Shown: one piece after another, positions 47,101 through 63,600 of the stretch | Layout: each line of letters opens with the position of its first letter | Numbering within the stretch: the first letter of the stretch is position 1 | Assembly (NCBI GenBank): GCA_018825365.1 | Contig: JAHJEV010000004.1 | Location: 27,527-91,526 of the forward strand | From: Patescibacteria group bacterium | GTDB taxonomy: Bacteria > Patescibacteriota > WWE3 > UBA101185 > UBA10185 | Reading direction: 5' to 3' | Length of the DNA: 64,000 nt | Made by a program: the position numbers and the translations under genes | The notes under the pieces: model-generated | Seen by the model: only the letters and a program-made list of their open reading frames with translations | What the model was told of the DNA's origin: nothing | The model's database searches: none

Positions 47101-50100
47101 ATTACCGGGGCCGGAGCGGCCAACTTTACTGGTTTAACTTCATCAGGAACAATTACCTTTTCCGGCTTGACCGCTTCAAGAGGAGTATTTACCGCTACCG
47201 GAGGGCAATTAGCTACTTCGGCTACTTCCCAATACCTAATTGACTCTCTTTCCGACGAAACAGGGTCGGGAGCTTTGGTCTTTAGTAACAGCCCGGCAAT
47301 TACCACCCCGACCATCACCACTTCAGCTACCGTGCCTTTATTAATTGGTGGTACAGCTGCCAACAGCACTTTGACTTTGAGATCCACTTCGGGTACGGGC
47401 ATAACCGGAGCTGACATTCTTTTCCAGACCGGTAACAACGGGGCTACTGAAGCCATGAGAATTTTGAACTCGGGCAATGTGGGTATTGGGACGACCAATC
47501 CACAGTATGCTCTTGAAGTAGGAGGAAGCGGGAATGTGAGAATCGGAGGACTTAGTGCCTCAATGGGAGTATATACCGATGCAAATAAGCAGCTAACTTC
47601 CACTCCTCCTACCTCCGGGGGTTTAGGATACTGGACAAGAAGTGGTACTACTCTTTGGCCTACCGCAAATACGGATAATCTAACCACTCTTGGCAACATT
47701 GGCATAGGCACCACCTCCCCCACCTCTTCTCTTCATCTTAATGCGTCTGCCCCCAGTGGCATTATATTTAATCTTGCCTATGGTGCATCCACAGTAATTG
47801 ACAACGATCTTACCGGCGCCAAGTTTAACCTTGATGACGGCACAGTCGTTGCAACCAACCAGAATATCACAGGCTTGGAGGTAAAGTTGCCAACCGTCAC
47901 CAACACCCATACAACAGGCACCAAAACGCTCAAAGGATTTTATGTAAACTTCGGAACCGGATCAGGCTTAAACCAAACCGGCGTCGGCGGCACCACCACC
48001 TACAATGCCCTTCACGTGGATCTTCCCGCCCTTACCCAAACGGCCGGAACGTTAAACATTAATGGTTTGTATGTGAACTCTCCGTCCAGTATCACAACCG
48101 GCGGTACGGCAAGCGGTCTTTATATAAACTCCACAGGAGTTAATGCAGGCGCGCTGTACGGGGTGAATGTAAGTAATATAACGGCAGGCGCGGGAACCGA
48201 ACGGGCGATTAACATAGGGAGTGGCTGGGACAGCGTTTTAGCAGTAAACGGTACCGTGATAATAAGCGGCTCGGGAGTAACCCAAACAGCCGGCGGCGGC
48301 ACCGGTTTTTCCACGTATACCAAAGGAGATGTCCTATACTCGGACGCGGCCAACTCGCTTGCTAAACTTGGCATTGGCACTGTCAATCAAGTTCTCTCCG
48401 TTACCGCAGGAGGAGTGCCGGGTTGGGGAACTATGGACGGTACAAGCTGTGTCAACTGTCTTATTAGCAACCCCACCGGAGATCAAATCATTGCTCCTAC
48501 CGGACAGGGTACGACAGGACTAGTTGTTCGCCAGACCTCAACCTCCTCTCCTACCGATGATATTTTTGCTGTTACCAATAGCGCCGGTGATAATAAATAT
48601 TTTTATGTTGACTACGCGGGCGTTGTCAATATCCCAAGTATCGGCTCCTCCAGCGGAGACCAGCTAACTATTGAACCAGGAACAGACAAATACGCCCTTA
48701 AACTTCTGGGCACCAATGTGGCGGCAAACAGCCTTCAGCTTATTGACAGCTACAACACTTCGGGCACCATTTTTGATCTTGACTACCCAGCGGCAAGAAC
48801 GCTTTCAGGCGCACTTGTTGGTATGGATATTGACCTTTCCACCAATCTAACAGTAACAAACCAAAGCGTAACCGCTCAAAAAATTACTTTACCCACTTTT
48901 ACCAATACAAATACCACAGGTACCAAGTCGTATTTGGGTATGCAAATTGCTCCCCCGGGAGCTGGCGGTGTTAACCAAAATGGTATTGGTGGAACAAGCG
49001 AGTACATTTTGGCGGATCTTACCATGCCTGCTCTTACCCAAACAGCAGGAACGCTTAATGCCTACGGGGTCAAAATCATAACACCTTCGTCCATCACCAC
49101 CGGCGGTACTGCTTATGGGGTTAATATAAACGCAAGCGGAGTCGGAGCAGGCACGCTTTACGGGATGAATGTAAGTAATATAGCGGCAGGCGCGGGAACC
49201 GAACGGGCGATAAACATCGGCACAGGCTGGGATTATGGTATCTACTCGGAAACCACAGGCAACTCCTACTTTGCAGGCAGTGTTGGCATCGGAACAACAA
49301 ATCCCACCGCAGCTCTTGATGTTGCTGGAGGAATAAAAGCAACTACATTTAATGGCAATATTATCTCCACAGGTACTGGAACTTTAACACTGGGGGCTTC
49401 AAAAACTTTAACTGTTAATGATTCCACTGTTTTGAATACTAATACCGTTACCTTCGGAGGAACAGAAATATTAACTTTAACCGCAGGAAAGAATGTAACC
49501 TTTGCTGATTCCTTTACCACCTCGGGATCAAATTCTCTCACACTAACAACTACCGGGTCAACCAATACAACCCTGCCAACCACAGGAACTCTTGCTACCT
49601 TAGCCGGAATAGAAACATTCAGCAGCAAAACATTTAGCGGAAATACATACTTTCCTGGATCTGGTATCTGGGATGCAGGAGGCAACATCGGCATCGGGAC
49701 GACAGCTCCGAAGAACAAGCTAGATGTATTTGGTGCTATGGCTATAGGGTCATACGCAGGTGTGAATACGGCACCGAGCAACGGGATGATAATATCTGGC
49801 AACGTCGGCATCGGGACGACGGGACCGGGGGCGACCCTGCACGTTCAAAAAGGTGCTGGTGTAACGGCGGTATCAGACAGCAACGCAGTGTTTCAACTCA
49901 CATCTGATGGTAATGCATCAAATATGTGGTTTAACATTAAGACAGGAGCCAATGGTGGAACCAATGGGACATTTGGATTTGCTGAAGCTGGGACTATTAA
50001 GGGCGGAATATTATGGGACGTGGCAAACGCCTCATTTAATTTATCTAGTGACGTAAACACTACAGCGACTTCAAGGCAAGTGATTATTAAAGCAGGCAAC

Positions 50101-53100
50101 GTCGGCATCGGGACGACGGGTCCCGTGGCCAATTTACACATTGTTGGCTCAACCTTGTTTGGCTCCTTAGCCGTGGCCGACAAGGTCACTGGCGGAAACA
50201 TCGGTACCGCCGCTGCCACCGTTGATATATATACCAGCTTCAATCTGTCCCAGGCCACCGCGGGCCAAACCATTACCCTGCCCGATCCAACTAATACCAC
50301 GGCCGGCAGATTAGTCTATCTTTCCAATACCGGTTCGGCCACCTTTACTTTTTACAACTCCACGGTTAAAGTCGGCGATACCACCGCGGCCATTTGGGAC
50401 AGTGACTCCTGGAACCTGGCCGGCGGCGGCGGTTTGGCTCAAGGCACGGTTGATAATGCTACTTTAAGATGGAACAACTCAACCACTCAGTGGGTGGAAA
50501 ATACCAGTATTCTTACCGCGTTAAATCCAACAGCCGTAGGTTCTTATGGGTTGTCAGTTGGCAATTCTGGCGCTGTTGCCGGAACCGGATATGGCATTTA
50601 CACCACAAAGACCGGGGGCTCAACTACTAATGTAGCTTTGTATGCATCGGCATCCGGTGGCGCTGCAAATTATGCTGCCATTTTTGATTCAGGAAATGTC
50701 GGCATCGGGACAACTGCTCCCACATATAAACTGGATACCCAACTGGCAAGTAATGGAATAATTGCAAGATTTTCAGCAACAGATGCAAGTTTACTTATAG
50801 GAGCAGATGCTAGTGGTGGATATATACAACCAGGAACAGTAGATAAAACTACAATATATCAATCAAACGGCACATCAGCAGTAGTAACTGTAGACGCTAA
50901 CAAAGTAGGTATAGGAACGACTGCTCCATCAACAAAATTAGATGTGAATGGCACGATTACCAGCCAGACCGGAGCTGTAAACTCCAATGTGGCTGACTCT
51001 TCAACCGCCATCGCCTTTTTACTGGCATCCAATAATACTTTATCCACCCAGGGCGCCAAACTCCTTTCTTTGAAAAACGCCTCAACGGAAAAGTTTTACA
51101 TTGACAAAGACGGCAATCTCTATACGGCCGGCACCATTCTGGCCGGCAATGGCACCGGCATACTGATGATTAACAAATCCGGCGGCACGGTCGCTAAGCG
51201 CAGTTTAGTCGTCATTGACATCACCACCAACTCCGCCTTTGCCACTACCACCACCGCCTACGCCAAATCCAGTTTTGGCGTGATTACCGGCGTCGGGCTT
51301 GGAGTAGCCTATGACGCCGATGGCGACGGCGCGTGCGACGCCGAAGATGTCTGCATGGTGGCGGTTGGCGGCGAAGTGGAAGTTCTTCTGACCAACGCGT
51401 CTACCGCCGTTAAAGGCGACTATATTTATACCTCGGCCACGGCCGGTTCGGGCGTGTCCAGCGCCAAGCAGTTTGACGGCCTTATCGGCATCGTCAGCAA
51501 CACGGCCGGCTCTGCTTCCGGCTATGGCAAAATGATTTTTAAAGTCCAGCCCCAGGTCTCCGGCTCGCAGTTTTTAACTAAAGAAGACACAGCTTTGGCT
51601 AATGGCGGTTATGTGGAGATAGTCCACAATCAGAGCACTAATGATGTGGTGACCAATGGGTGGGTGTACAACACAACCACCAGTAAATGGGAAATAGTTG
51701 GTGATAGTGGGGATGCAATTGGTGGAACAGTAACATATAAAGATGGATATACCATCCATACATTTACCAGTAGCGGAACCTTCACGCCAGTTAGTGCTGG
51801 AAATGTTGAAGTTTATGCTTGGGGTGGTGGCGCAGGTGGTGGGTATAACGCCGGTGCCGGAGGTGGTGGAGGAGCAGCTAATGGTACAGTAACAGTTGCG
51901 GCATCTTCTTATGTTGTTACTGTTGGTGGCGGTGGATTATCTAGGGCACCGGATGCTGGTCCTGGACCAGCAGTTGTTGGTGGAGGTGGTTTAGCAGGTA
52001 ATCTTGGTTATGGTGGTCAAGGCGGAGGTTTATCTGGAATTTTTATAGGATCTTCTTCTCAAGTCAATGCTCGCTTAATGGCTGGTGGGGGCGGTGGTGG
52101 TGCTTACGAAGGTGCTAATGGCGGTGCTGGAGGCGGCACTAATGGCGTTGCTGGTGGCAACGGTTTAGATGCTGGTGGTGGTGGAGGAACACAATCTGCT
52201 GGTGGCACATCTGTTTCCTCTACCGGTTCTGCGCTACAGGGAGGTTCTTCTGGTGCTCAAGGTGATGGTGGCGGTAGCGGTGGTGGAGGTGGTGGTTATT
52301 GGGGTGGAGGAGCTGGTAGTAATACCAATCCTGGTTCTGCTGGTGGTGGCGGTGCAGGATTTTATAACCCAACTTATGCTTCCTCTGTAACATTAACTGC
52401 AGGTTCTGGAACAACACCTGGTGATTCAGGTAATTCTTTAAGAGGTTCTGCTGGTAATGGAGGTGCGGCTGGTAATAATGCAGGTACAGCCGGCATTGTC
52501 ATTGTTAGATATCTGACGAATTCGTTGAGCGCTTTCAAAATCACCCAGCAGGATACCAATACGGTTCGGCTTTATAATTATTCCGGCGCGACGCAATATG
52601 TCAGGTTAAATGTTATTCCTTCCGGCGGCGGCGGTTCGCCGGGCGGCGGCGCCGGGCTCTACACCAATAACAACGCCTCCGTTGCCAACGGCTCCTACAT
52701 CGACGTGGCGCACAACCAGAACACCGCCGACCTGGTAAGCAACGGGTGGATTTACAATACAGCTACTAGCAAATGGGAACAGATTGACAAAGATAGTAGT
52801 GATGCCACTGGCGGAACAATAACATATAGCGGTGGATATACCATTCATACTTTTACAAGTAGCGGAACATTCACACCACCAAATAATGGAAATGTTGAAT
52901 ATCTTGTGGTTGGAGGAGGAGGAGGAGGTCATACGGGAGGTGGTGGGGCGGGTGGATATTTGACTGGAACAGATTCATTATCCGCAACCTCTTACAATGT
53001 TATAGTTGGAGCAACAGTGGGCGCATATACAACTGGAAACAATAGTTCATTCAATGGCAAAATAGCTTCTGGCGGAGGTCTTGGAGGAAATGTAGGTGAA

Positions 53101-56076
53101 GCAGGGGGAGATGGAGGTTCGGGTGGTGGTGCGGGTGCGGGTGGTGGTGTGTATGCACATGGTCACGCAACTGGTACTCCGAGTAGCCAAGGTCATGATG
53201 GGGGCATAAACTATAATAGCTCTCCTTATCCTGCTGGTGGTGGCGGTGGCGCAGATACAGTAGGTTCAGATGGAACGTCTAATGGAGGTGGAAATGGGGG
53301 CGCAGGACTAACATCAAGTATTAGTGGAAGTTCAGTAGGTTATGCAGGTGGGGGTGGGGGTTATAGTCAAGATACAAAACCTCCAGGAACTGCGTCCCAT
53401 GGAGGAGGAGCAGGAGTAGGGCAAACGGGCACTCCCAATGCTGGCACACCTAATACTGGCGGAGGCGGCGGCGGCGGACAGAATGGTGGTGCAGGTGGTT
53501 CCGGCATTGTCATTGTCAGATATTTAACCAATTCTTTAAGTGCTTTCAAAATCACCCAGCTCGATACCAACACGGTACGGCTCTACAACTACTCCGGTAC
53601 TACTCAAAACTTACGGCTTGATGTCATTACCGGAGGATTGGGCCGAAACGCCGGCACCGTGTCTTTGGCGCCGGCTGCCGCCGACGTTGACAGCCAGGAT
53701 AACTCCAACAGCATCTGGATCAACAAAACCGGAGCCGGGGGCTTGCTGCTCAAGCTCCAATCTGCGGCTGCGGATGTTCTCACTTTGGCCAAGAGCGGCC
53801 TGATGACCTTGGCCGGCAGTTTCGTTCCCGCTACCAACGATACCTATGATTTGGGTTCGGACGCCTTGAGATGGCAGTCTGCCTACATCGGGCCCGGGAC
53901 AGTGCACATTGGCACCTCCACCGCTGATGAGTACACTATGTCATATGACACAACTAACAACCGCTTGGGTTTCAATGTCAACGGTTCGGGCGATGCGGAA
54001 ATCGTCTTTGATTCCTCCGGCAACGTCGGCATCGGGACGACGGGACCAGAATCTAAACTACATGTTATGTTTAATAGCGCAGGTACAATCACAGGTTTTT
54101 CCGACGCATTAATTGTTGAAAACAACGCGAATGCTTATTTGAACCTCATTGGTTCAACTTCTGGAATAAAGGCGATTACTTTTGGAGACCCAACTGCCGG
54201 TGTGGTAGATGGTCAAATCACCTACAATGCCCTCGCTACTGACATGCTTGACTTTCGTGTTGCTGGTAATTCTGTAAAGATGGTGATTGACTCTTCCGGC
54301 AACGTCGGCATCGGGACGACGACGCCTGCAGCTAGAACACACATAGTCAATACTACAGCTACCGCACTAAGGTTGGATGTAAATGATGCATTTTCTTATG
54401 CGGAGTTTTATACTGGTGCAACATATCGTGGAAATATAACATATCAGGCGGCAAGTACTGCTTTGCGATTGACTGCTGGAACAGCACAGAACTTACTCTT
54501 AACTGCTGCGGATAGTAATGATAAAGGGATATTTATAAAAACAGACGGCAATGTCGGCATCGGTACAACAGCTCCGAAGAACAAGCTAGATGTATTTGGT
54601 GCTATGGCTATAGGGTCATACGCAGGTGTGAATACGGCACCGAGCAACGGGATGATAATATCTGGCAACGTCGGCATCGGGACGACGGGGCCGGGGGGCA
54701 AGTTAAGCATTTATGATACGTCAGCCGGTGCTAACGATAGGGTACAGATAGTCAGCGATCTAAGTTCGAGCGTGGACCAGTTGGTACTCCATCATTATGG
54801 GACGGCAGGAACTCAGCTTGCGTCATTTTGGAGAGGCAGGGGCACTTTCTCTTCACCAACAGCTTTATCGAATGGTGATGCAATCGGTCAATTTAATTTC
54901 GTAGGATATGACACAAGTAACACGGCTCAGACAGGGGCAGGATTCGGGGCAGTAGTAGATGCGGCTCCAGGAGCTGGAAGCGTTCCTATTGCAATAAGAT
55001 TTTTAACAGGTACCACAGGAGGTGGGACGGAACGGGTCAGAATTGATAGTACCGGCAACGTCGGCATCGGGACGACGGGGCCAGTGAGCTCGCTAGAAAT
55101 AAAAGGTCCGAACACTGTAAATACTCCGCGCTTAACGCTCAACCAACTTTATAACGCAGGAGCGTCGGCGTGGGGTATTGATTTCACTCGCACCTACGAC
55201 ACCGGTGGTGACGGACAAAACGCGGGGTACATTCGTATTGGCCGTGCCGGGGGAACCTCAAATTCGGGTATGTTTTTTGGGCTTGGTGACCAAGGTACAG
55301 TCGCAGATAGAATGACTATTCTTCCAAGCGGCAACGTCGGCATCGGGACGACAGGTCCAGGGTATACATTAACAGTTGCAGGTACTGCCTGGGTTACAAG
55401 CGGCGCCTGGTCTGGTTCGGATGTTAGATGGAAAGAAAATATTCAGCCTATAGCAGGAGCCTTGGACAAAGTACTGCAACTCTCCGGAGTTTTCTATAAC
55501 TGGAGAAAAGACGAGTTTCCAGAAAATAAATTTGATGACAAAACTCACTTGGGGTTAATTGCTCAGGATGTAGAAAAAATTGTTCCCGAACTGGTAACCA
55601 CAGGACCAGACGGCTATAAAGGTCTTGATTATAATGGATTAGCGCCTCTTTTAATTGGGGCCGTACAGGAACAGCAGGGGCAAATCTCGCTGCTGTCAGG
55701 ACAGCTGGTAAGCTTATCAAATATCGTCCGTGTTGAAGGCTCGTGCGTTACCGGTGACACATTGCTTCCCATCCGCCGCCGACGCAAAAGTCTAAGTGGT
55801 CTGGAATCCGAGGACGACAATGGGTTATTTGATTACCTGTTGATCCGTATCGATGAAATACTACCTGGCGATGAAGTCTCGTCCTTAAATGAGTTTACAG
55901 GCTCTCTAGAATGGCATAAAATAAATGCCTCGATGGATATGGATATTAAGGAAGTTTTTGAGCTTACAACCAAATCAGGAAAAGTAATCAGGACAACAGC
56001 CAAGCATCCTTACTTAACTTTGTTGGAAGATAAATTGGAAGGTAACCCTGTAGTTAGTAAAGAAGGAATAAAATAA
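44182..56076 (+). CDS. giant (3964 aa) cell-surface protein: N-terminal HTH, single TM, tail-fibre-like 'GNVGIGTTxP' repeat array, tandem Gly-rich modules, peptidase-S74 intramolecular chaperone domain, C-terminal split-intein N-fragment
   Basis: Single uninterrupted ORF. HTH 'LKVSQAAKILGISPSSLRRFEKEERI' (aa 22-50). TM 'RVFALISTLVLVSTILIFPV' (aa ~184-204). Many 'SGNVGIGTT(A/N/G)P..KL(D/E)V' repeats. S74 motif 'SDVRWKENIQPIAGALDKVLQLSGVFYNWRKDE...LIAQDVEKIVPELV'. Final 110 aa 'CVTGDTLL...VIRTTAKHPYLT...' are intein blocks A and B. Confidence 0.85.
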   Translation: MSLPAQENAQRNNDTKYDFQRFGSLKVSQAAKILGISPSSLRRFEKEERITSERAPGNNYRTYRLDLVNRLKAELQNDGTNKQLLVKRKKLRKTQKYSPEKINTGLIKTKPGIIPSPAPVFNMDIPSAPYHVKPYVPVSPSLEKLDESIKTKGDKEENLNLPEVVPSYEKIVTYKPAVAKLSLGRVFALISTLVLVSTILIFPVNFSKVLSDFRSKVQNGLVNAKNLSNVLSTLNFGSKKLAEKKSTAPSELLANVLAASARVSNYVYNINIPVFFKKPATFEDTLTAEQLATFNAAITTTNVTFKGTGLINNLLGIDVVTKTTLERDLDIDGQITSTGMGDTVISKGIITGPMLNSNITYSGKFNFSGTIALKGTTITSTAAELNQLAGLSYESGGIFYGDGTGFYQDTSYLFWDSTNKNLGIGTSSPTATLEIISSGTGTSTSTLWTKNSTGTTGLFVQNSGNVGVGTTAPATALEIGGSGNLRIGGLTALSGVYTDADKTLVSTPPTSGTLGYWQRNGTYVSPATITDNVGIGTTAPSALLEVNGTSWLRGGTAPTSGLFVNSSGNVGIGTTNPGAKLDVRGGLNTGTNGTEFTVSDTGIVTAATSFLAPTFDTATGVAMNIGTATQTALTLGRAGATTTINGSGLTVGPTAWTATPTISGLITATSGLTANGALTANSTFTLGDDGDLGSIDTSDWNITTTGAMTGISGIANDGAYTQSGTSANTFTGTSTFSNATYSAFFTGGNVGIGTTEPGSKLEVAGTFTVSGSNLTTLGGNLTVTGTTWTATPTISGLVTMTSGFDSNAASTVSSLTIDANTGNALTISGTGFTTDITLQNGETIDNDTDGTILLTAPTTKTSGNLYAGTSGTGTITSGLINGQTISSAANFTGTGIFASTLTASNGLTLTTGALNLTSTSGTVNLATTFNQVGATTINTSGTANTTIGNTAGGTITIGAASGSDLALNDAQWSITGAGAANFTGLTSSGTITFSGLTASRGVFTATGGQLATSATSQYLIDSLSDETGSGALVFSNSPAITTPTITTSATVPLLIGGTAANSTLTLRSTSGTGITGADILFQTGNNGATEAMRILNSGNVGIGTTNPQYALEVGGSGNVRIGGLSASMGVYTDANKQLTSTPPTSGGLGYWTRSGTTLWPTANTDNLTTLGNIGIGTTSPTSSLHLNASAPSGIIFNLAYGASTVIDNDLTGAKFNLDDGTVVATNQNITGLEVKLPTVTNTHTTGTKTLKGFYVNFGTGSGLNQTGVGGTTTYNALHVDLPALTQTAGTLNINGLYVNSPSSITTGGTASGLYINSTGVNAGALYGVNVSNITAGAGTERAINIGSGWDSVLAVNGTVIISGSGVTQTAGGGTGFSTYTKGDVLYSDAANSLAKLGIGTVNQVLSVTAGGVPGWGTMDGTSCVNCLISNPTGDQIIAPTGQGTTGLVVRQTSTSSPTDDIFAVTNSAGDNKYFYVDYAGVVNIPSIGSSSGDQLTIEPGTDKYALKLLGTNVAANSLQLIDSYNTSGTIFDLDYPAARTLSGALVGMDIDLSTNLTVTNQSVTAQKITLPTFTNTNTTGTKSYLGMQIAPPGAGGVNQNGIGGTSEYILADLTMPALTQTAGTLNAYGVKIITPSSITTGGTAYGVNINASGVGAGTLYGMNVSNIAAGAGTERAINIGTGWDYGIYSETTGNSYFAGSVGIGTTNPTAALDVAGGIKATTFNGNIISTGTGTLTLGASKTLTVNDSTVLNTNTVTFGGTEILTLTAGKNVTFADSFTTSGSNSLTLTTTGSTNTTLPTTGTLATLAGIETFSSKTFSGNTYFPGSGIWDAGGNIGIGTTAPKNKLDVFGAMAIGSYAGVNTAPSNGMIISGNVGIGTTGPGATLHVQKGAGVTAVSDSNAVFQLTSDGNASNMWFNIKTGANGGTNGTFGFAEAGTIKGGILWDVANASFNLSSDVNTTATSRQVIIKAGNVGIGTTGPVANLHIVGSTLFGSLAVADKVTGGNIGTAAATVDIYTSFNLSQATAGQTITLPDPTNTTAGRLVYLSNTGSATFTFYNSTVKVGDTTAAIWDSDSWNLAGGGGLAQGTVDNATLRWNNSTTQWVENTSILTALNPTAVGSYGLSVGNSGAVAGTGYGIYTTKTGGSTTNVALYASASGGAANYAAIFDSGNVGIGTTAPTYKLDTQLASNGIIARFSATDASLLIGADASGGYIQPGTVDKTTIYQSNGTSAVVTVDANKVGIGTTAPSTKLDVNGTITSQTGAVNSNVADSSTAIAFLLASNNTLSTQGAKLLSLKNASTEKFYIDKDGNLYTAGTILAGNGTGILMINKSGGTVAKRSLVVIDITTNSAFATTTTAYAKSSFGVITGVGLGVAYDADGDGACDAEDVCMVAVGGEVEVLLTNASTAVKGDYIYTSATAGSGVSSAKQFDGLIGIVSNTAGSASGYGKMIFKVQPQVSGSQFLTKEDTALANGGYVEIVHNQSTNDVVTNGWVYNTTTSKWEIVGDSGDAIGGTVTYKDGYTIHTFTSSGTFTPVSAGNVEVYAWGGGAGGGYNAGAGGGGGAANGTVTVAASSYVVTVGGGGLSRAPDAGPGPAVVGGGGLAGNLGYGGQGGGLSGIFIGSSSQVNARLMAGGGGGGAYEGANGGAGGGTNGVAGGNGLDAGGGGGTQSAGGTSVSSTGSALQGGSSGAQGDGGGSGGGGGGYWGGGAGSNTNPGSAGGGGAGFYNPTYASSVTLTAGSGTTPGDSGNSLRGSAGNGGAAGNNAGTAGIVIVRYLTNSLSAFKITQQDTNTVRLYNYSGATQYVRLNVIPSGGGGSPGGGAGLYTNNNASVANGSYIDVAHNQNTADLVSNGWIYNTATSKWEQIDKDSSDATGGTITYSGGYTIHTFTSSGTFTPPNNGNVEYLVVGGGGGGHTGGGGAGGYLTGTDSLSATSYNVIVGATVGAYTTGNNSSFNGKIASGGGLGGNVGEAGGDGGSGGGAGAGGGVYAHGHATGTPSSQGHDGGINYNSSPYPAGGGGGADTVGSDGTSNGGGNGGAGLTSSISGSSVGYAGGGGGYSQDTKPPGTASHGGGAGVGQTGTPNAGTPNTGGGGGGGQNGGAGGSGIVIVRYLTNSLSAFKITQLDTNTVRLYNYSGTTQNLRLDVITGGLGRNAGTVSLAPAAADVDSQDNSNSIWINKTGAGGLLLKLQSAAADVLTLAKSGLMTLAGSFVPATNDTYDLGSDALRWQSAYIGPGTVHIGTSTADEYTMSYDTTNNRLGFNVNGSGDAEIVFDSSGNVGIGTTGPESKLHVMFNSAGTITGFSDALIVENNANAYLNLIGSTSGIKAITFGDPTAGVVDGQITYNALATDMLDFRVAGNSVKMVIDSSGNVGIGTTTPAARTHIVNTTATALRLDVNDAFSYAEFYTGATYRGNITYQAASTALRLTAGTAQNLLLTAADSNDKGIFIKTDGNVGIGTTAPKNKLDVFGAMAIGSYAGVNTAPSNGMIISGNVGIGTTGPGGKLSIYDTSAGANDRVQIVSDLSSSVDQLVLHHYGTAGTQLASFWRGRGTFSSPTALSNGDAIGQFNFVGYDTSNTAQTGAGFGAVVDAAPGAGSVPIAIRFLTGTTGGGTERVRIDSTGNVGIGTTGPVSSLEIKGPNTVNTPRLTLNQLYNAGASAWGIDFTRTYDTGGDGQNAGYIRIGRAGGTSNSGMFFGLGDQGTVADRMTILPSGNVGIGTTGPGYTLTVAGTAWVTSGAWSGSDVRWKENIQPIAGALDKVLQLSGVFYNWRKDEFPENKFDDKTHLGLIAQDVEKIVPELVTTGPDGYKGLDYNGLAPLLIGAVQEQQGQISLLSGQLVSLSNIVRVEGSCVTGDTLLPIRRRRKSLSGLESEDDNGLFDYLLIRIDEILPGDEVSSLNEFTGSLEWHKINASMDMDIKEVFELTTKSGKVIRTTAKHPYLTLLEDKLEGNPVVSKEGIK
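49705..49824 (+). repeat. ~120-nt perfect intragenic direct repeat, copy 1 (copy 2 at 54571-54690)
   Basis: Identical stretch 'gctccgaagaacaagctagatgtatttggtgctatggctatagggtcatacgcaggtgtgaatacggcaccgagcaacgggatgataatatctggcaacgtcggcatcgggacgacggg' at both sites. Confidence 0.8.
54571..54690 (+). repeat. ~120-nt perfect intragenic direct repeat, copy 2
   Basis: See copy 1; 4.87 kb apart in the same reading frame, encoding 'APKNKLDVFGAMAIGSYAGVNTAPSNGMIISGNVGIGTTGPG'. Confidence 0.8.
55417..55743 (+). other. peptidase S74 / intramolecular chaperone auto-processing domain (sub-feature of the giant CDS)
   Basis: 'SDVRWKENI...FYNWRKDEFPENKFDDKTHLGLIAQDVEKIVPELV' matches the tail-spike/endosialidase C-terminal chaperone domain (SDxRxK Ser-Lys dyad region). 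Confidence 0.7.
55744..56073 (+). other. split-intein N-terminal fragment (Int-N; Hint blocks A and B), DnaE-split-intein-like
   Basis: Block A 'CVTGDTLL' at the extein/intein junction (…VEGS|C); block B 'GKVIRTTAKHPYLT', close to the cyanobacterial DnaE Int-N block B 'GSVIRATSDHRFLT' as recalled; ORF stops 20 aa later, as in natural Int-N. Confidence 0.75.
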
Positions 56077-56201
56077 ATGAGTAAATTTTTAAACAGTTTT
56101 TTAACTAAATATCTCACGATTACAAGAGGAAGTGCCAAAATTTCCCAAACTAGTGAGATTGGGACCTCGCCAATCCGTGAGATGGGGGAGACTAAAAATC
56201 T

Positions 56202-56780
56202 ATGAAAATTAACCAAAATATGAAAAAATTCCAAAAAACTCTGGAATTAAAAGGCAAAACGGCTGTCCTCATTGATTGGGCTAACGTTCACGGATGGGCA
56301 GAATTGGGTCACTCTGAAGTTAATCTAAAAAAGTTGTTTAAATACTTAAGAGGGTACAAAAAGATTAAAGCAATAAATCTATATTTCGGTAAGGATACTC
56401 ATCCAAAATCAAAAAAGTTTTTAGGTGAAGCGAAGAAAATAGGTTTTAAGGTAATCACAAAACCAGTTAAATATATCAAGGTGGCTGTATTCCAAAATAA
56501 ACCAATTTTCCGACGAAAGTGCGACTTTGATATGGAAATTTGTATTGATATTCACAAACATTTAAGCCAAAATTATGATAGTTTCATTTTCTTTTCTGGC
56601 GATGGGGACTTTGAGCCTCTTTATAGACTATTAATCGAAAGACATAAACAGGTTATTGTAATATATGGACAAGGCCATCTGGGAAGGGAGATTTACTCAA
56701 TAAAACAGGGGTTATATAAACTCGATATTAATAAGTTGGGGTCAGTAAAAAATGACCCCCCGGTTTCCCGGAGGGCGTGA
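56202..56780 (+). CDS. NYN-domain (LabA/YacP-like) protein
   Basis: 'KTAVLIDWANVHG' N-terminal acidic motif and 'FFSGDGDFEPL' NYN signature; 192 aa. Confidence 0.7.
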   Translation: MKINQNMKKFQKTLELKGKTAVLIDWANVHGWAELGHSEVNLKKLFKYLRGYKKIKAINLYFGKDTHPKSKKFLGEAKKIGFKVITKPVKYIKVAVFQNKPIFRRKCDFDMEICIDIHKHLSQNYDSFIFFSGDGDFEPLYRLLIERHKQVIVIYGQGHLGREIYSIKQGLYKLDINKLGSVKNDPPVSRRA

Positions 56781-56906
56781 TTAAAAGTATGTTAACAAAA
56801 CTAGCCAGAAAAGTCAAATTAGGAAAGATCGGCAAAGACCGCTTAACTCAGGAATTTATACCTGGCGATCAGCGATTCGAGCCGATTAGTAGGTAAAGGA
56901 TAACGT

Positions 56907-58232
56907 ATGTCTAAATTTTTATCAAATATTTTTAATTTAATGAAGGCCCATAAACCTGGGGTCCCCGACCTCGCTAAATCGCCTATAGGTGGTGATGTAC
57001 CAACTACACCGAACAAGCAAGACGGACATCTCACCTCCGCTCAGGGCAAGCCCATAATGGACTCTTTTGCCTGCCCTTACTGCGCAAGCAAACACTTTGT
57101 CAGAAGAGGTTTTAGACAGAAAAAAATGGAAAAAGTCCAGCTTTATCTTTGCCTGGAGTGCAACAAAACCTTTACCCAGCATATAACCCGCGGCAAACAC
57201 TATCCTTTACCGGTTGTTTTCGATGCTATCAGCACTTATAATCTTGGGTATTCTCTGGAAGAAACCTGCAGGATAATTAATAGCCGCACCGCCGGCGTTA
57301 CGTCAGCAGTTTCCGAGGCAGGTCCCGCACTTTCGGCATCGACTTTATCAAATTGGCTTAATGAAACATCAGAGCTCTGCCGATTTGAGCGCATGCGCGA
57401 ATATGCCCTGAAAAAATACTCGCCAGAAAATATGGTTGTTACCGCAACTCTCGCCCACCGACAGCTTTACCGCTACCGCTTCCATAGAGCCAAATGCGAA
57501 CTTATCATCACTGAAGATTTTAAACACCACCGCTTCGGGCCTTTGCAGGAATTTCTAGAAATGGTGCCCAGTGAGTGTCCGCACCAATATTTCCAAGAAG
57601 GCTTAAGGGCCAGTGAAGTGCCTTTGACCTTTTCCAAAACCCAAATGATCGTCAGAAGCAAGCAAAACTACGCCACTGCGCTTGCCACCTTTATCCTGCA
57701 GTCGGTCAAGGATAGAAAACTGCGCCATGACGCTATACAAAAATTTATGCTGGCCAACGACACGGTAACTGTCGCCACTGAAGTACCGGTTTACTTAACC
57801 CACGATGATTTGGAGCATTTGCAGACACAGCTAGGGTTTGAAATATATGACTCCCCCATTAAAGGAGCCCGTTCGGCCGCCTTGGAAGTGTGTACCGACC
57901 TGCCAAAATTAATCACTGGCCACATTGACATACTGCAAATAAGAAACGGCCAGATTCATATTTTGGATTTTAAACCTGACGCCGCAAAAGAACAGCCGAT
58001 TGAACAGCTGACTTTGTATGCTATGGCGCTGTCCAGACTTACCGGTTTAAGATTATTCGAGTTTAAATGCGCTTGGTTTGATGAAAAAGACTATTTTGAA
58101 TTTTATCCATTACATGTTTTACTTAAAACAAAGAAAAGTCAGAGACGCCGAAAAGTCTATACCATGGAAGGAGTTTATAAAATTAATCAGGATGAAAGAA
58201 AGGTAACAGAAATTAAACCTATACACCTATGA
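56907..58232 (+). CDS. Zn-ribbon + PD-(D/E)xK nuclease-fold protein (candidate free-standing homing endonuclease)
   Basis: N-terminal 'CPYCASKH...CLECNKTF' C4 ribbon; C-terminal 'ITGHIDILQIRNGQIHILDFKPD' (D...D/ExK-like core); locally higher GC than the genome. Confidence 0.55.
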   Translation: MSKFLSNIFNLMKAHKPGVPDLAKSPIGGDVPTTPNKQDGHLTSAQGKPIMDSFACPYCASKHFVRRGFRQKKMEKVQLYLCLECNKTFTQHITRGKHYPLPVVFDAISTYNLGYSLEETCRIINSRTAGVTSAVSEAGPALSASTLSNWLNETSELCRFERMREYALKKYSPENMVVTATLAHRQLYRYRFHRAKCELIITEDFKHHRFGPLQEFLEMVPSECPHQYFQEGLRASEVPLTFSKTQMIVRSKQNYATALATFILQSVKDRKLRHDAIQKFMLANDTVTVATEVPVYLTHDDLEHLQTQLGFEIYDSPIKGARSAALEVCTDLPKLITGHIDILQIRNGQIHILDFKPDAAKEQPIEQLTLYAMALSRLTGLRLFEFKCAWFDEKDYFEFYPLHVLLKTKKSQRRRKVYTMEGVYKINQDERKVTEIKPIHL

Positions 58233-58645
58233 CCTATCAAAAATCATACAGCCCTAAAAGACCGGTGAAAAGCTTCCAGGATTTGGAAGTGTACCAAAAG
58301 TTATTGGCTCTCTCAGTTGCTGTAGCCAAAAGAGTCAAATCCGAAAAAGTGACTGCCATTGCCTTAGATTTGCCGGTTAAGATAGCCACAGCTCACTCAT
58401 CGAGATTTGGTGATCAGACAAAGGCAATTTACGCTCTGGATGAAGTAATGCTTAATTGCAATCTGCTTGTTGTTTATTTGGAACAATACCGGGATATTGA
58501 AAATCCGTCTGCTAAAGAGGCAGAGAAGATTGAATCTGAATTTTTTGAGGAGCAGATTAAAAGTCTTTTGTCAGTCAGAATGAAAATTTTACATTTACAA
58601 AATTCGTGGAAGAAATTCGCCAAAGAATATGCCAAACAAAAATAA
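58229..58645 (+). CDS. four-helix-bundle protein (23S rRNA intervening-sequence protein family, TIGR02436-like)
   Basis: 'FQDLEVYQKLLALSVAVAKRV...' matches the four-helix-bundle/IVS protein N-terminus (FxDLxVWQKA); 138 aa; 4-nt overlap with upstream gene. Confidence 0.7.
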   Translation: MTYQKSYSPKRPVKSFQDLEVYQKLLALSVAVAKRVKSEKVTAIALDLPVKIATAHSSRFGDQTKAIYALDEVMLNCNLLVVYLEQYRDIENPSAKEAEKIESEFFEEQIKSLLSVRMKILHLQNSWKKFAKEYAKQK

Positions 58646-58883
58646 CAAGAAAAATTTAATAGACACCCACCCTGTAGGCAGGATCTTTAATATTGGCAAG
58701 GAAAAGGCCGTCTGGAAAAGAGTAACCGAGCTAAAACCCGGGGTAAAAATTGCTGTCGAAAAAGATGGAAACCTCGCTTGGGATGAAATTGTTGAAATAA
58801 AATCCGTCGGCCTCGAAAGAGTCTGGGACATTGAAGTTGAAGGCACGCATAACTTTGTCGGCAACGGTATCATCGCCCACAAT
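58629..58883 (+). other. Int-C portion (blocks F/G) of the split intein
   Basis: 'VWDIEVEGTHNFVGNGIIAHN' similar to the DnaE Int-C '[22 protein letters not shown]' as recalled; splice junction at 58883/58884. Confidence 0.75.
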
Positions 58884-60638
58884 ACTTTTCTCAACGATCT
58901 TGTTGGGATAGGAACTACAAATCCAGCAGATACAACCTTAAACTTATCAAGTACAAGCCCGTCTAGTATAAATATGCTGGATGTTGACGGAGTAATAAGA
59001 ATCAACCAATCAGTAGTCACCGACACAGTTTCAAACACCTTATACAACAACTCGGATGTATTAATGTGGAATGATAAACAAATATCAGCCGGACCTAACC
59101 TGTACTCGATAAACGGATCCGTTTCCAACGATGAGTATTTATCGCTACAACACAAACAGGGTACAACTGACATACTGGTCACAGCATGGGTAAACGACGG
59201 AACAAAATGGGTAAAGATTGCAAATCTAGGAGACCCGTCAGATACAACCGGGGATTACTACTTCACTACACCGGACAGCGATACGGTCCGTTTACACAAT
59301 AAATCCGGAAACTCACAGTCATTAAAACTAGACATATTCGTATCCGGAGCTAATGTTGCAGAGTGGTACACACTCGATAACACATTTGCTGACACTAGCA
59401 CAGCTTCAGATGTTTCAGATATCTCAGACACTTCGGATACTTCAGATGTTATAACTACCGGTACATCCCCAAGCACTGAAATTACCCTACCAGGTTCATC
59501 ACCTGATACCTCAATCACCGAGTCTACGTCCGTACCTAATACTGAAATTACTAAAATTGAATCCGGTGATGTTGTTGCACTATCTACAAATATTGACGAT
59601 TACGGAATGCCGATGATTAGAAAAACAAGCACCTATTACGACTCGAGTTTATTTGGAGTAGTTACTACAAGTGCCAGCCACGAAATGGGAATACAAAGAG
59701 ATGGAAGAAAACTTGTTGCCCTGTCAGGTAGAGTCCCTGTAAAGATAGATCCCGCTTCTTCAGATATTAAACCCGGAGACTTCATTACAGCATCATCTCT
59801 TGAGGGACATGCAACCAAAGCTGAAATGCCGGGAAGAGTCATTGGTACAGCGCTGCAGTCGTGGAATAAAAATTCCGGTGACAAAAAGGTACTGGTTTTA
59901 GTCAATCCAACATACAACTCACCTACCGCCCAAGCACTCACATCAGCTTTATCATCTGACAGCTCTACATCTGGAGATATTTCAAATGAAATGCTAACTC
60001 TAAGAGATCAGATAGTTGCCCTATCTAACAATCTTAAGGACACACTATCTTCCCTTGGGATGACATTAACTAAGGATGAGGTTTCAGAAAAAGACACGCT
60101 GGCTATTAACTCAGACATGCACATACTTGGGGATGTGACACTTACTAACCTGACCGTAACTGGCGATATTCAGGCAGGAATGGTCACAATTGACACACTT
60201 TCTAACTCAGTAGACGTGCTTGGATCTTCCTGCTATAACTCAGAAACTAATACAATCAATGACACATTATGTAATGATCAGGCTTTACATCTTCAAAAAT
60301 CTGGCTCCGGTATGATTGACATGTTCGACGGAAAGATAGTTGCCAAACCAAACGGAACATTGGTTATAGAAAACTCCATAGAAACCAAGAAACTTGTCAT
60401 CAACACATCTGATGTAGAATCCGCAGCTGCAGGAAAAACAACCATCAAAGCCGGTGACACCAGTATCACAATAGATACGAGCGCTGTAAATGACAAATCC
60501 ATAATCATGATAACTCCGGAAAGACCGGCTACTGTCGGAAGCAAATACAAGCAGGAAGGAAAGTTTGAAATAGTCTTGAAGGAGGCTCAGGCGGAGGATC
60601 TTGATATAAGCTGGATAATTGTGGATAGAAAAGATTAA
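58629..60638 (+). CDS. split-intein C-terminal fragment (Int-C, 85 aa) fused to the C-terminal extein of the tail-fibre-like surface protein (669 aa total)
   Basis: 'RVWDIEVEGTHNFVGNGIIAHN|TFLNDLVGIGTTNP...' carries intein blocks F and G ending in HN with +1 Thr; extein resumes the GIGTT repeat type of the upstream giant protein; S/T/D-rich linker; C-terminal globular region. Confidence 0.8.
   Translation: MPNKNNKKNLIDTHPVGRIFNIGKEKAVWKRVTELKPGVKIAVEKDGNLAWDEIVEIKSVGLERVWDIEVEGTHNFVGNGIIAHNTFLNDLVGIGTTNPADTTLNLSSTSPSSINMLDVDGVIRINQSVVTDTVSNTLYNNSDVLMWNDKQISAGPNLYSINGSVSNDEYLSLQHKQGTTDILVTAWVNDGTKWVKIANLGDPSDTTGDYYFTTPDSDTVRLHNKSGNSQSLKLDIFVSGANVAEWYTLDNTFADTSTASDVSDISDTSDTSDVITTGTSPSTEITLPGSSPDTSITESTSVPNTEITKIESGDVVALSTNIDDYGMPMIRKTSTYYDSSLFGVVTTSASHEMGIQRDGRKLVALSGRVPVKIDPASSDIKPGDFITASSLEGHATKAEMPGRVIGTALQSWNKNSGDKKVLVLVNPTYNSPTAQALTSALSSDSSTSGDISNEMLTLRDQIVALSNNLKDTLSSLGMTLTKDEVSEKDTLAINSDMHILGDVTLTNLTVTGDIQAGMVTIDTLSNSVDVLGSSCYNSETNTINDTLCNDQALHLQKSGSGMIDMFDGKIVAKPNGTLVIENSIETKKLVINTSDVESAAAGKTTIKAGDTSITIDTSAVNDKSIIMITPERPATVGSKYKQEGKFEIVLKEAQAEDLDISWIIVDRKD
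60486..60638 (+). repeat. 3'-terminal ~150 nt of the Int-C/extein gene (master copy of a thrice-repeated segment)
   Basis: Sequence 'taaatgacaaatccataatcatgataactccggaaagaccggctactgtcggaagcaaatacaagcaggaaggaaagtttgaaata...ctggataattgtggatagaaaagattaa' recurs at 62003-62152 and partly at 63579-63600. Confidence 0.8.
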
Positions 60639-60736
60639 ACTACTCAAAAAGCCACTGAATAGAAAACTTGGTTTTTGGTCTACTTTACTACTCATCACTT
60701 ATATTTAAGGTTGAGATAGTAAAATCTCCCGCAGAC

Positions 60737-61930
60737 TTACGTTGGATTATTTTCCGAGAGTATGCCAAATCTTCCCAAAATTAGCGGTAATTTTTCCATG
60801 TTGATAACTTCAACCGGAAGATGATATAGGGAAGTGAAAGCCTTAGATTTAGACGAACTCTTTGACCATTTTATCTCAAAAGCTTGTATTTCCCCTTTTG
60901 AATTTTTTACCACCAAGTCAACCTCGCTATTGTTTCTCGAACGCCAATAATAAAGCACACTTTGTTTGCCTAACAAAAGATTCCTCTTAGCAAATTCCGC
61001 AATAACCCAGTTTTCCCAAAGTTTACCGATATCTCCTCTATTGTTATTTTCCTGCATCTCACCAATCAGGGCATTCCTTACTCCTGTATCCCAAAAATAG
61101 ATTTTATTGCTTTTGGAAATTTCCTTTCGGGGATTGGTACTATACGCAGGTAGTTGAAAAATAACAAAAGTTTCTTCCAACAGATCTAGATATTTTACGA
61201 CTGTTTGTCTGGAAATACCCAAACTTCCAGCAATTTCATTAATCGAAACAACTGACCCAACTTGATAAGCTAAAAGAAGCAGAAGCTTTCTTAAGGTCCC
61301 CGGGCTTTTTACTAAACCAACTTGCAGGATATCTTTTAGAAGATAGTCAGAAATTAAATTATTAAGATACTCCCGTTTATCTAAAGTTTTAACTGCCTCA
61401 GGATAACTACCATAAATAAGACTGGTAAATAAAATTGAATCTGTTTGATCCCGAAAATTCCCTTTATCCAATCTCAATTCCGGCTGGTACCAGCTTTGGG
61501 AGGAAATTATCTCCGAAAAAGTTAATGGCGGCAAAAATAATTTAATATTTCTGCCGGTCAAAGTTTCTGCAGATTGATCAAGTAAATTCAAGCTAGACGA
61601 TCCTGACAGAATTATTTTGGTTGTAACCCCGAAATCGTACCATCCTTTCACTACTCTACTAATTTCGGGTACCCTCTGCGCCTCATCTACAATTAGAATT
61701 TCGGGGGAACCCAAAAGAGATAGGGAGGATTTCGGATCCAAGGGCACGGACGACAACAGCCTTTGTCTGTCAACCTCAATATCTAAATTAAGATAAGTAG
61801 TTCTTTCCAGCTTGAAGGCATTTTTCAAAAGCGTGGTTTTTCCAACCTGCCTAGCACCCAACAGCAACAGAACTTTTCCCGAGTCAAACCACTTCTTTAA
61901 ATTATCTTCTGCTAAGCGACTTATGTACAT
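60737..61930 (-). CDS. AAA+ ATPase (AAA_14 + DUF4143-type 'ATP-binding protein')
   Basis: Walker A 'LLLGARQVGKTTLL', Walker B 'ILIVDEAQ'; 397 aa. Confidence 0.8.
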   Translation of the reverse strand: MYISRLAEDNLKKWFDSGKVLLLLGARQVGKTTLLKNAFKLERTTYLNLDIEVDRQRLLSSVPLDPKSSLSLLGSPEILIVDEAQRVPEISRVVKGWYDFGVTTKIILSGSSSLNLLDQSAETLTGRNIKLFLPPLTFSEIISSQSWYQPELRLDKGNFRDQTDSILFTSLIYGSYPEAVKTLDKREYLNNLISDYLLKDILQVGLVKSPGTLRKLLLLLAYQVGSVVSINEIAGSLGISRQTVVKYLDLLEETFVIFQLPAYSTNPRKEISKSNKIYFWDTGVRNALIGEMQENNNRGDIGKLWENWVIAEFAKRNLLLGKQSVLYYWRSRNNSEVDLVVKNSKGEIQAFEIKWSKSSSKSKAFTSLYHLPVEVINMEKLPLILGRFGILSENNPT

Positions 61931-62002
61931 ATTTTGATAACTGCAGTTTACAATATATGTATCTATTTTGTCAAGTGTATGTAATCATAATCAGGATCTA
62001 TA

Positions 62003-62152
62003 AATGACACGTCCATAATCATGATAACTCCGGAAAGACCGGCTACTGTCGGAAGCAAATACAAGCAGGAAGGAAAGTTTGAAATAATCTTAAAAGAGGC
62101 TCAAACGGAGGATCTTGATATAAGCTGGATAATTGTGGATAGAAAAGATTAG
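62003..62152 (+). repeat. orphan near-identical copy of the last ~50 codons of the 58629..60638 gene
   Basis: Few substitutions relative to 60486-60638; in-frame translation preserved ('...MITPERPATVGSKYKQEGKFEIILKEAQTEDLDISWIIVDRKD*'). Confidence 0.8.
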
Positions 62153-62209
62153 AAAACTTAAGAGAAAATATATTAAAAGCCAAACCAGCGTTCCCCCGAT
62201 TAGTCTAAC

Positions 62210-63472: not shown

Positions 63473-63578
63473 ATATTACTATTTTAGTACCTTATTTATG
63501 GTAGTCAAGTACTAGAAAGGTCGCCCACTTTGGGATCTGGCAAAGTCTTTCCTGAGAATCTTGGCATAAACTGAGTAA

Positions 63579-63600
63579 TTGCGGATAGAAAAGATTAAGA
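63579..63600 (+). repeat. third, short degenerate copy of the gene 3' end ('AATTGCGGATAGAAAAGATTAAG')
   Basis: Matches 'AATTGTGGATAGAAAAGATTAA' at 60617-60638 and 62131-62152. Confidence 0.6.

Follow-up and report, generated by a model that had tools for sequence, protein, structure and literature searches.

One question raised by the locus studied here is how a single giant surface protein could be made from two separate genes. The locus lies in a stretch of 64,000 nt from an uncultured, ultra-small bacterium of the Patescibacteria group (GenBank assembly GCA_018825365.1, contig JAHJEV010000004.1, positions 27,527 to 91,526 of the forward strand), which we refer to as the window and within which all positions are numbered. 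A giant open reading frame (ORF) in the window ends in the N-terminal half of an intein (Int-N), and the next large ORF on the same strand begins with the C-terminal half (Int-C). A preliminary description of this DNA had proposed that a split DnaE-like intein divides the gene. Our analysis of sequence, profiles and related loci points to a naturally split class-1 intein that fractures the giant surface-protein gene, with the two pieces joined by trans-splicing. We put the probability of this reading at roughly 0.75.

Two matching intein halves end one ORF and open the next

The giant ORF (44182-56076, + strand, 3964 aa) consists of an N-extein of 3854 aa, which is the bulk of the surface protein (44182-55743), and Int-N (110 aa; 55744-56076 with its TAA stop codon, coding part 55744-56073). 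Its end reads ...VRVEGS/CVTGDTLL...VIRTTAKHPYLTLLEDKLEGNPVVSKEGIK and then the stop codon, where the slash marks the boundary between extein and intein. As in the preliminary description, block A (CVTGDTLL) directly follows an extein Ser, and its Cys, encoded by 55744-55746, is the first residue of the intein (Cys1). Int-N opens CVTGDTLLPIRRRRKSLSG and closes KVIRTTAKHPYLTLLEDKLEGNPVVSKEGIK; a basic insert separates block A from block B (TTAKHPYL), and a tail of 17 aa follows block B. The stop codon lies 18 aa after HPYLT, not 20 aa past block B as originally counted.

The downstream ORF (58629-60638, + strand, 669 aa) begins MPNKNNKKNLIDTHPVGRIFNIGKEKAVWKRVTELKPG, and its N-terminal stretch through Int-C reads MPNKNNKKNLIDTHPVGRIFNIGKEKAVWKRVTELKPGVKIAVEKDGNLAWDEIVEIKSVGLERVWDIEVEGTHNFVGNGIIAHN/TFLNDLVGIGTTNP. 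Int-C (58629-58883, + strand, 85 aa) starts with a leader of 28 aa (MPNKNNKKNLIDTHPVGRIFNIGKEKAV), which is followed by the core of 57 aa (WKRVTELKPG...VWDIEVEGTHNFVGNGIIAHN). Blocks F and G run to the terminal Asn (codon 58881-58883) and are followed, as had been proposed, by a Thr at position +1 (codon 58884-58886), the first residue of the 584-aa C-extein (58884-60638, + strand; start TFLNDLVGIGTTNP). The interval 55744-58883 given in the preliminary description therefore proves exact, running from the first base of the Cys1 codon to the last base of the terminal Asn codon, and the gap of 2.5 kb described between the two same-strand ORFs measures 2552 nt from the Int-N stop to the Int-C ATG. 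Together, the halves carry Cys1, a TxxH in block B, blocks F and G with His-Asn, and Thr+1, all of which are expected of a class-1 intein.

Intein profiles match both halves. Int-C aligns with positions 112-155 of Pfam Intein_splicing (PF14890; E 6.5e-10, 39.5 bits, cutoff 35.8) and scores 35.3 bits against TIGR01443 (intein_Cterm; curated cutoff 15.6). Int-N aligns with positions 10-74 of the 155 in PF14890 (E 7e-6, 26.3 bits) and matches NCBIfam TIGR01445 (intein_Nterm; E 3e-4, 21.8 bits, cutoff 24.5). Thus, the profile comparison suggested in the preliminary description came out positive, with the C-terminal half above the curated cutoffs and the N-terminal half just below them because, taken alone, it is half a domain.

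The joined halves match the Npu DnaB mini-intein (4o1r) with an E-value of 1e-16, and DnaB mini-inteins (Npu 4o1r and Ssp 1mi8) are the closest solved relatives. Matches to DnaE inteins are marginal, with E-values of about 1e-3 to 1e-2. In the alignment to the 142 residues of 4o1r, query residues 41-93 correspond to 29-81 and residues 139-195 to 84-142. Since the joined halves cover 4o1r bar two residues, they make up a nearly complete DnaB-type mini-intein, with no part of the fold absent. The N-terminal stretch of 4o1r is outside this alignment; by eye, CVTGDTLL resembles CISGDSLI, which we take to be the DnaB block A. The break falls between HPYLTL and WKRV, two residues past the block-B strand, at a place where DnaB mini-inteins have two residues. 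The proposal of a split DnaE-like intein therefore stands as far as the split is concerned (profiles, joined fold and the recurrence described below); "DnaE-like" has to be dropped, as DnaB inteins are closer and the split site is a different one.

The fractured layout recurs and its splicing residues are conserved

The gap between the halves contains, among other genes, a predicted nuclease gene and a gene for a small helical protein, which we refer to together as the cassette. A one-genome-per-species scan with an alignment of the nuclease gave 139 relatives, and 80 loci were fetched and analysed by tblastn. All 80 come from metagenome-assembled genomes (MAGs) or uncultured-bacterium bins. 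Most are named as Candidate Phyla Radiation (CPR)/Patescibacteria, and about a tenth are filed under Gammaproteobacteria or Bdellovibrionales bin labels. Int-N upstream, the cassette, and Int-C downstream were found together in 24 of the 80 loci, and 4 further loci have one half at a contig edge. Counting these 24 species-representative loci and two others, L003 and L004, the fractured layout occurs in at least 26 other Patescibacteria loci. L003 has a 1861-aa ORF ending in Int-N, a 414-aa PD-(D/E)XK protein, a 137-aa protein, a 184-aa ORF and the Int-C ORF; L004 has Int-N, proteins of 430 and 131 aa, and the Int-C ORF. The intervening proteins of these two loci are 66-78% (nuclease) and 59-78% (helical protein) identical to those of the window. 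Furthermore, many Patescibacteria proteins open with the same Int-C (M..F.DTHPIGRIF.LG...VWKRV...AHN/TYISGNVGIGTT).

All 24 aligned fractured loci keep Cys1, TT..HP.L, the penultimate His, the terminal Asn and Thr+1. Positions that are invariant or nearly so include Cys1, G-D-T and block B in Int-N, and W, G..IAV, DEI and V.DIEV..THNF in Int-C. Every one of the 24 ends in AHN/T, including five with an insert of 35-45 aa between blocks F and G. The members of this insert subgroup (L008, L010, L014, L048 and L073) carry the extra residues between THNFVAGH (block F) and GGI.AHN/T (block G).

Between loci, the proportion of synonymous differences (pS) is 0.5-1.0, beyond the Jukes-Cantor limit in most pairs, and that of nonsynonymous differences (pN) is 0.13-0.45. 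About one-fifth of the pairs allow an estimate of omega, and in these both halves have values of about 0.08-0.32. By these substitution estimates, Int-N and Int-C are under purifying selection. N-extein ORFs stay open to the edge of the locus (up to 1857 aa), and C-extein ORFs, 340-1670 aa long, are intact in 23 of the 28 listed loci, those in which the contig reaches the stop codon; four of the remaining C-exteins run off the contig and that of L011 was not extractable. Because the break point and the cassette are the same in all these loci, the halves have been kept split through long divergence, and such long maintenance is an argument for function. A separate search for homologues with Int-N only, in which 24 candidates passed the word filter, gave 13 matches, all of them contig-truncated gene calls, and is uninformative on the ratio of split to contiguous forms.

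The exteins belong to one surface-protein architecture

The N-extein starts with a cytoplasmic MerR-type helix-turn-helix (HTH; aa 26-72) and one transmembrane segment (~aa 183-205). It has 19 G[IV]G[TI][TSA] motifs (GNVGIGTT-type) and a Peptidase_S74 intramolecular-chaperone domain at aa 3746-3806 (55417-55599). The C-extein has no signal peptide, and a GIGTTNP repeat stands directly after Thr+1. The "same repeat chemistry" that the preliminary description saw on both sides of the intein is thus borne out, with one more motif of the N-extein type opening the C-extein. In other loci the junction reads ...KLHVEG[SNHQ]/C...AHN/TY[IV][ST]GN.GIGTT.P, i.e., the intein sits between two copies of the repeat.

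The end of the C-extein, ...DISWIIVDRKD, is the C-terminal domain that closes unfractured members of the family (...NWWIVN, ...FNWLIVK). This canonical domain is missing from the N-extein ORF, and the downstream ORF alone supplies it. Lacking its own export signal, the C-terminal module should be able to reach the surface only within a ligated chain. The expected ligated product has 4438 aa (3854 + 584), the canonical architecture of the family and the predicted junction peptide ...VRVEGS-TFLNDLVGIGTT... Trans-splicing had been estimated to add ~585 aa; on the coordinates of the C-extein it would add 584.

A DNA-binding head is not typical of a giant extracellular fibre, and in the L003 orthologue Phage_int_SAM-type domains stand in place of the MerR-type HTH. 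The Peptidase_S74 domain is usually found at the extreme C-terminus of phage fibres, where it is self-cleaving; here it is internal in the giant ORF, as is also seen in P0009. If the domain autocleaves, the spliced-on 584-aa C-extein would be released along with it. The GC content of the giant gene is 0.47-0.52 (46000-56000) compared to 0.35-0.40 in the rest of the window, which may be due to the Gly/Thr/Ala-rich repeats or, alternatively, to foreign origin.

A nuclease cassette fills the break

The 2552-nt gap is filled by a tightly packed and translationally coupled chain of genes, all on the + strand. The Int-N stop is immediately followed by the ATG (TAAATG) of a 42-codon ORF (56077-56205; MSKFLNSFLTKYLTITRGSAKISQTSEIGTSPIREM...), whose TGA overlaps the ATG of a free-standing NYN-domain (PIN-like nuclease) gene (ATGA; 56202-56780, 192 aa; PF01936, 76 bits, cutoff 24.2). 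After a separation of 127 nt comes the nuclease ORF (56907-58232, 441 aa). Its stop overlaps the start of the helical-protein gene, again as ATGA (58229-58645, 138 aa), and the end of the helical-protein gene overlaps the start of Int-C by 17 nt.

The 42-codon ORF matches the N-terminus of intact orthologues of the nuclease, such as the 414-aa protein of L003, which starts MNNFLNNFLTKFLTITRVSAKISQTSEIGTPPIREM. We therefore read the 42-codon ORF as the original 5' portion of the nuclease gene, severed by a secondary insertion, the NYN gene. The 441-aa ORF restarts with a similar MSKFL... (56907-56932), and this sequence suggests a partial duplication at the NYN insertion site. NYN ORFs take other positions elsewhere: after the helical gene (L008, L010), between the nuclease and helical genes (L048), or in two places (L054).

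The 441-aa protein has an IS1-type C4 Zn ribbon (NF050000), an HTH and a threshold-level match to PDDEXK_1, a profile that matches 23 of 24 members of the nuclease family (best E 9e-7). D341, D354-x-K356 and Q367...Y371, in the pattern D...DxK...QxxxY, are invariant in 56 sequences. In an alignment-based AlphaFold model, the mean predicted local distance difference test score (pLDDT) is 68, and that of the nuclease core is about 75-88; Foldseek matches to this model are weak and of the same kind. When the alignment profile was compared with PDB sequences, the Zn ribbon alone was matched (Rpb9/TFIIS type). Given its motifs, profile match and modelled fold, the 441-aa ORF is a predicted RecB/Cas4-like PD-(D/E)XK nuclease and a candidate free-standing homing endonuclease. 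A single scan of IMG/VR with narrow peptide patterns found no relatives of it.

The helical protein is a divergent relative of the 23S_rRNA_IVP four-helix bundle (PF05635), a profile that matches 8 of 23 orthologues (best E 8e-6) and does not match the window copy; its alignment profile found no match among PDB sequences. The 23S_rRNA_IVP family is known from intervening sequences (IVS) in rRNA genes, among others in CPR bacteria (PMC11270868). Nuclease and helical genes are paired in every one of the 80 loci where the contig extends past the nuclease gene, and the divergence of the two genes is strongly correlated (0.77). The nuclease family comprises at least 2072 clusters at 90% identity, mostly on short contigs. 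Several diverged copies of the cassette can occur in one genome, with nucleotide identities of 84-87% (L032/L036/L037) or ~74% (L047/L052).

Other readings of the insert were considered and rejected. The 2.5 kb are flanked by neither terminal inverted repeats nor a target-site duplication (the only matches, of 17-26 nt, are at chance level), which speaks against a classical insertion sequence or transposon. An intron or a ribozyme was rejected because an Rfam scan of 55000-59500 gave no match at E<=1. The idea of separate promoters or terminators was likewise rejected, as no terminator-like site was found on the + strand between the intein halves and promoter-like sites in the region are not more frequent than in shuffled sequence. 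A diversity-generating retroelement, with the helical protein in the role of Avd, was dismissed: Pfam/NCBIfam scans of the gap ORFs revealed no reverse-transcriptase domain, and none was seen among the genes called across and downstream of the locus in a related strain (L001, see below). Finally, a polymorphic-toxin locus, with Hint domain, toxin and downstream orphan cassettes, does not fit: the giant ORF has just half a Hint domain, Thr+1 is kept, and the C-extein is the normal C-terminal module.

Contiguous relatives and NYN-nested inteins

Some relatives of the split intein are contiguous. In two surface proteins, P0026 (intein 401-718) and P0033 (intein 206-537), an NYN domain is nested right after block B (470-621 and 278-422, respectively). 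A third protein, P0050, is an SMC-type ATPase whose P-loop contains an intein at 64-378, again with an NYN domain nested right after block B (138-276). In P0044 the sequence runs through the break site without interruption. P0026, P0033 and P0044 have the same extein context as the fractured loci (...KLHVEGx/C...AHN/TYISGNxGIGTT). Intein profile scores of contiguous relatives are 60-71 bits. P0026 also has a match to the pretoxin-HINT (PT-HINT) profile (20.5 bits, cutoff 27.7); the window halves have none. The free-standing NYN protein of the window is 30% identical to the nested NYN domain of P0026. In the open-access literature we found no papers linking NYN domains to inteins and none on inteins in CPR surface proteins. 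From its position in these sequences, the NYN domain may be an undescribed intein-associated, perhaps homing, nuclease.

In two other loci, L057 (ORF ending 2124) and L077 (ORF ending 2854), the Int-N frame runs into the PD-(D/E)XK nuclease without a stop. Judging from these frames, the fusion of N-extein, Int-N and nuclease is an intermediate between free-standing and nested endonucleases.

A model for the origin of the break and the joining of the pieces

The presence of a nuclease cassette in the gap makes this locus a "fractured gene" in the sense of Dassa, London, Stoddard, Schueler-Furman and Pietrokovski (NAR 2009, PMC2677866) and explains the origin of the break. In our model, the cassette (nuclease plus IVS-type four-helix gene) would have invaded the intein coding sequence just after block B, thereby making the break and supplying the upstream stop and the downstream start. 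In the window genome, a later insertion of the NYN gene would have interrupted the nuclease gene near its start. After translation, Int-N and Int-C would associate in the cytoplasm and rebuild the Hint fold. Cys1 would then attack, Thr+1 would trans-esterify and the terminal Asn would cyclise, resulting in the 4438-aa protein. The nuclease probably acts as the free-standing homing endonuclease of the element. Beside the observed anatomy, conservation and selection, we infer trans-splicing, nuclease activity and homing.

Several points weigh against this model. Because the host is an exported protein anchored in the membrane near its N-terminus, splicing would have to be completed in the cytoplasm, ahead of translocation of the C-terminus. 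We know of no characterised split intein with its break immediately past block B. AlphaFold, run on the joined halves as a single sequence, gave an uninformative model (pLDDT 34). The divergence of Int-N and that of Int-C are correlated significantly, though modestly (Spearman 0.27, a value reached in 2 of 2000 permutations). Furthermore, about 50 of the 80 cassette loci are outside inteins, just past the stop codon of similar surface-protein genes (L012, L015, L018-L021, L024-L032 and ~35 more; host C-termini ...NWWIVN or ...FNWLIVK) and often beside NYN, MazF-like (by eye from translations) or other four-helix-bundle genes. The link between cassettes and surface-protein genes may therefore not be simple intein homing.

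Alternative explanations

The window comes from a MAG, and assemblies often break in relatives of this repetitive gene, so the two ORFs might in reality be contiguous or stem from different genomes. However, the identical 669-aa product is found on three independent contigs (an NCBI "Patescibacteria group bacterium" MAG; a JGI metagenome). In addition, a non-identical strain (L001, GCA_043824185.1; 98.7% identity over 8.3 kb) agrees with the window in gene order and junctions, and dozens of other genomes show the same architecture. Together these results exclude an artefact for practical purposes. A second alternative is that the gene is simply dead, i.e., that the cassette inactivated a cis-splicing intein and left a truncated giant protein with a useless Int-N tail and a downstream ORF that is a decaying remnant or unrelated. 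In favour of this, a mobile-looking, multi-copy cassette sits exactly in the intein, the cassette of the window has itself been hit by a second insertion (the NYN gene), and splicing is something we infer. Nevertheless, the same break is seen in at least 26 loci that have diverged to ~53% mean identity and keep all catalytic residues. Their long C-extein ORFs are intact and have a start codon in the corresponding position, omega is far below 1 wherever it can be estimated, and the downstream ORF alone supplies the C-terminal domain of the family. We consider a dead gene quite unlikely.

A functional locus need not ligate its products. The Hint halves could cleave, in the manner of bacterial intein-like (BIL) or PT-HINT domains, or dock non-covalently, giving variant ends to the surface protein. 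Hint domains of variable secreted and surface proteins (BIL, pretoxin-HINT) reportedly cleave as a rule rather than splice. The PT-HINT match of P0026, which is weak and below the cutoff, would agree with this, as would the finding that two near-identical strains, those of the window and of L001, have different N-exteins joined at the intein boundary. On the other hand, all 24 loci keep Thr+1 and the His-Asn dipeptide, the strongest matches are to true inteins (DnaB mini-inteins, TIGR01443, PF14890), and the extein residues flanking the junction form one repeat motif that ligation restores. Cleavage or docking without ligation is therefore unlikely in our view, and trans-splicing remains our preferred reading.

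Strain comparison and a possible mobile system

DNA homology between the window and L001 begins at 55732 (L001 position 1131), 12 nt before the intein. Identity climbs through Int-N from ~85% to >97% and is then ~98.7% to the end of the window; the N-exteins are ~51% identical as proteins. The gradual rise through Int-N resembles a conversion tract. From these sequences it is possible that the N-extein end was swapped by recombination at the intein boundary, or that the end of the L001 contig comes from a paralogue.

A bolder reading takes the split intein and the PD-(D/E)XK/IVS-type cassette as one mobile system, widespread and so far undescribed, that is specialised on the genes for giant surface proteins in Patescibacteria. 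Beyond tolerating the breakage of genes, it would drive modular exchange of segments, and NYN would be a new class of homing nuclease, nested in inteins or free-standing. Exchange could occur by nuclease-triggered gene conversion at the intein boundary or by trans-splicing of alternative partners. This reading is suggested by the 98.7%-identical strains, whose unrelated N-exteins join exactly at the intein start, by the cassettes that adjoin surface-protein genes even without an intein, and by the several diverged copies per genome. We offer it tentatively and regard it as doubtful.

Comparison with known inteins and homing endonucleases

Fractured genes such as gp41-1, NrdJ-1 and IMPDH-1 were described in eight types of host enzyme, mostly of DNA synthesis or repair, at loci proposed to be mostly of phage or viral origin (Dassa et al., NAR 2009, PMC2677866). 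The same study predicted that the invading element donates a stop and a start and overlaps the downstream gene (PMC2677866). The window locus resembles these genes in its same-strand order of N-terminal host part with Int-N, nuclease gene(s), and Int-C with C-terminal host part. It also resembles them in that the insert donates the stop and the start and overlaps the Int-C ORF with its 3' end, that all five splicing residues are retained, and that there are in-frame fusion intermediates (here L057 and L077). In contrast to them, the host is a giant exported, membrane-anchored surface protein on a Patescibacteria chromosome and not an enzyme of DNA metabolism. The insert is a two-gene PD-(D/E)XK/IVS-type cassette plus NYN rather than a single GIY-YIG or Vsr-like gene. 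There is no spacer of 27-51 nt (TAAATG here), the break is right after block B, the +1 residue is Thr, and Int-C has 85 aa rather than 33-54 aa. Thus, the arrangement is that of the known fractured genes, and the host protein class, lineage, break point and nuclease cassette are new.

The canonical DnaE intein is split at the endonuclease site into an Int-N of ~102-123 aa and an Int-C of ~36 aa. Like the DnaE split inteins (Npu/Ssp DnaE), the window intein is a naturally split class-1 intein with Cys1 and a terminal His-Asn, and the same mechanism is expected. However, its host is not DnaE, its halves are 2.5 kb apart on one strand and not at distant loci, it is split ~20-25 residues earlier, and it matches DnaE inteins with E-values of ~1e-3 to 1e-2 compared to 1e-16 for DnaB. 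Host, split site, the 85-aa Int-C and the closer sequence match to DnaB rule out assignment to the DnaE type. DnaB mini-inteins differ in turn in being contiguous, whether engineered or natural, and in residing in a helicase; the window intein is split and has a basic 20-aa insert after block A.

Inteins with nested LAGLIDADG or HNH endonucleases resemble P0026, P0033 and P0050, in which a nuclease-type domain is nested between blocks B and F. Here the nested domain is NYN, however, and it stands before the W-K-K-V strand, earlier than the endonuclease site of Ssp DnaB. We place that site from the presumed deletion point of 1mi8 (after residue ~106) set against the 4o1r alignment. BIL and PT-HINT domains share with the window a Hint domain inside a large, repetitive, strain-variable surface protein. 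Unlike them, the +1 nucleophile and intein-type blocks are conserved here and intein models match, not PT-HINT; we rejected the assignment to BIL or PT-HINT because of the conserved Thr+1 and these blocks. Vsr-like/EDxHD homing endonucleases such as I-Bth0305I are reportedly homing enzymes with a restriction-endonuclease fold, either free-standing or associated with introns or inteins, to which the window nuclease would be similar. It differs in being RecB/Cas4-type with an IS1-type Zn ribbon and an HTH, and has no detectable relation to Vsr in sequence.

Few natural split inteins are known, and they are much valued for protein ligation. To our knowledge, those described are in replication or repair proteins or other intracellular enzymes, many of them from phage- or virus-like sequences. 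The intein described here would add a large family conserved in cellular organisms, with an unused break point after block B, a long Int-C and Thr+1. A split intein in an exported, non-enzymatic surface protein also raises the question of the order of trans-splicing and membrane translocation. The "fractured gene" model is extended by a two-gene nuclease cassette, by natural in-frame fusions of Int-N and nuclease, by nested NYN domains in contiguous relatives and by NYN invasion of the cassette, so that several steps of the proposed evolutionary cycle of inteins and endonucleases are represented within one lineage. Finally, the giant surface proteins of Patescibacteria, which are likely host-contact structures, are marked by this family as hot spots for selfish elements and possibly for module swapping.

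Repeats at the 3' end of the C-extein gene

The last ~155 nt of the C-extein gene (60484-60647, ...EDLDISWIIVDRKD and stop) recur at 61998-62161 with 93-98% identity, 1514 nt downstream. Two AAA_14/DUF4143 ATPase genes are encoded on the minus strand, one after the first copy (60737-61930) and one after the second (62210-63472). A third, degenerate copy (63554-63598, 84%) lies after the second ATPase gene, a further 1446 nt on. From the sequence, this region looks like a tandem duplication of a unit consisting of the 3' end of the gene and an ATPase gene.

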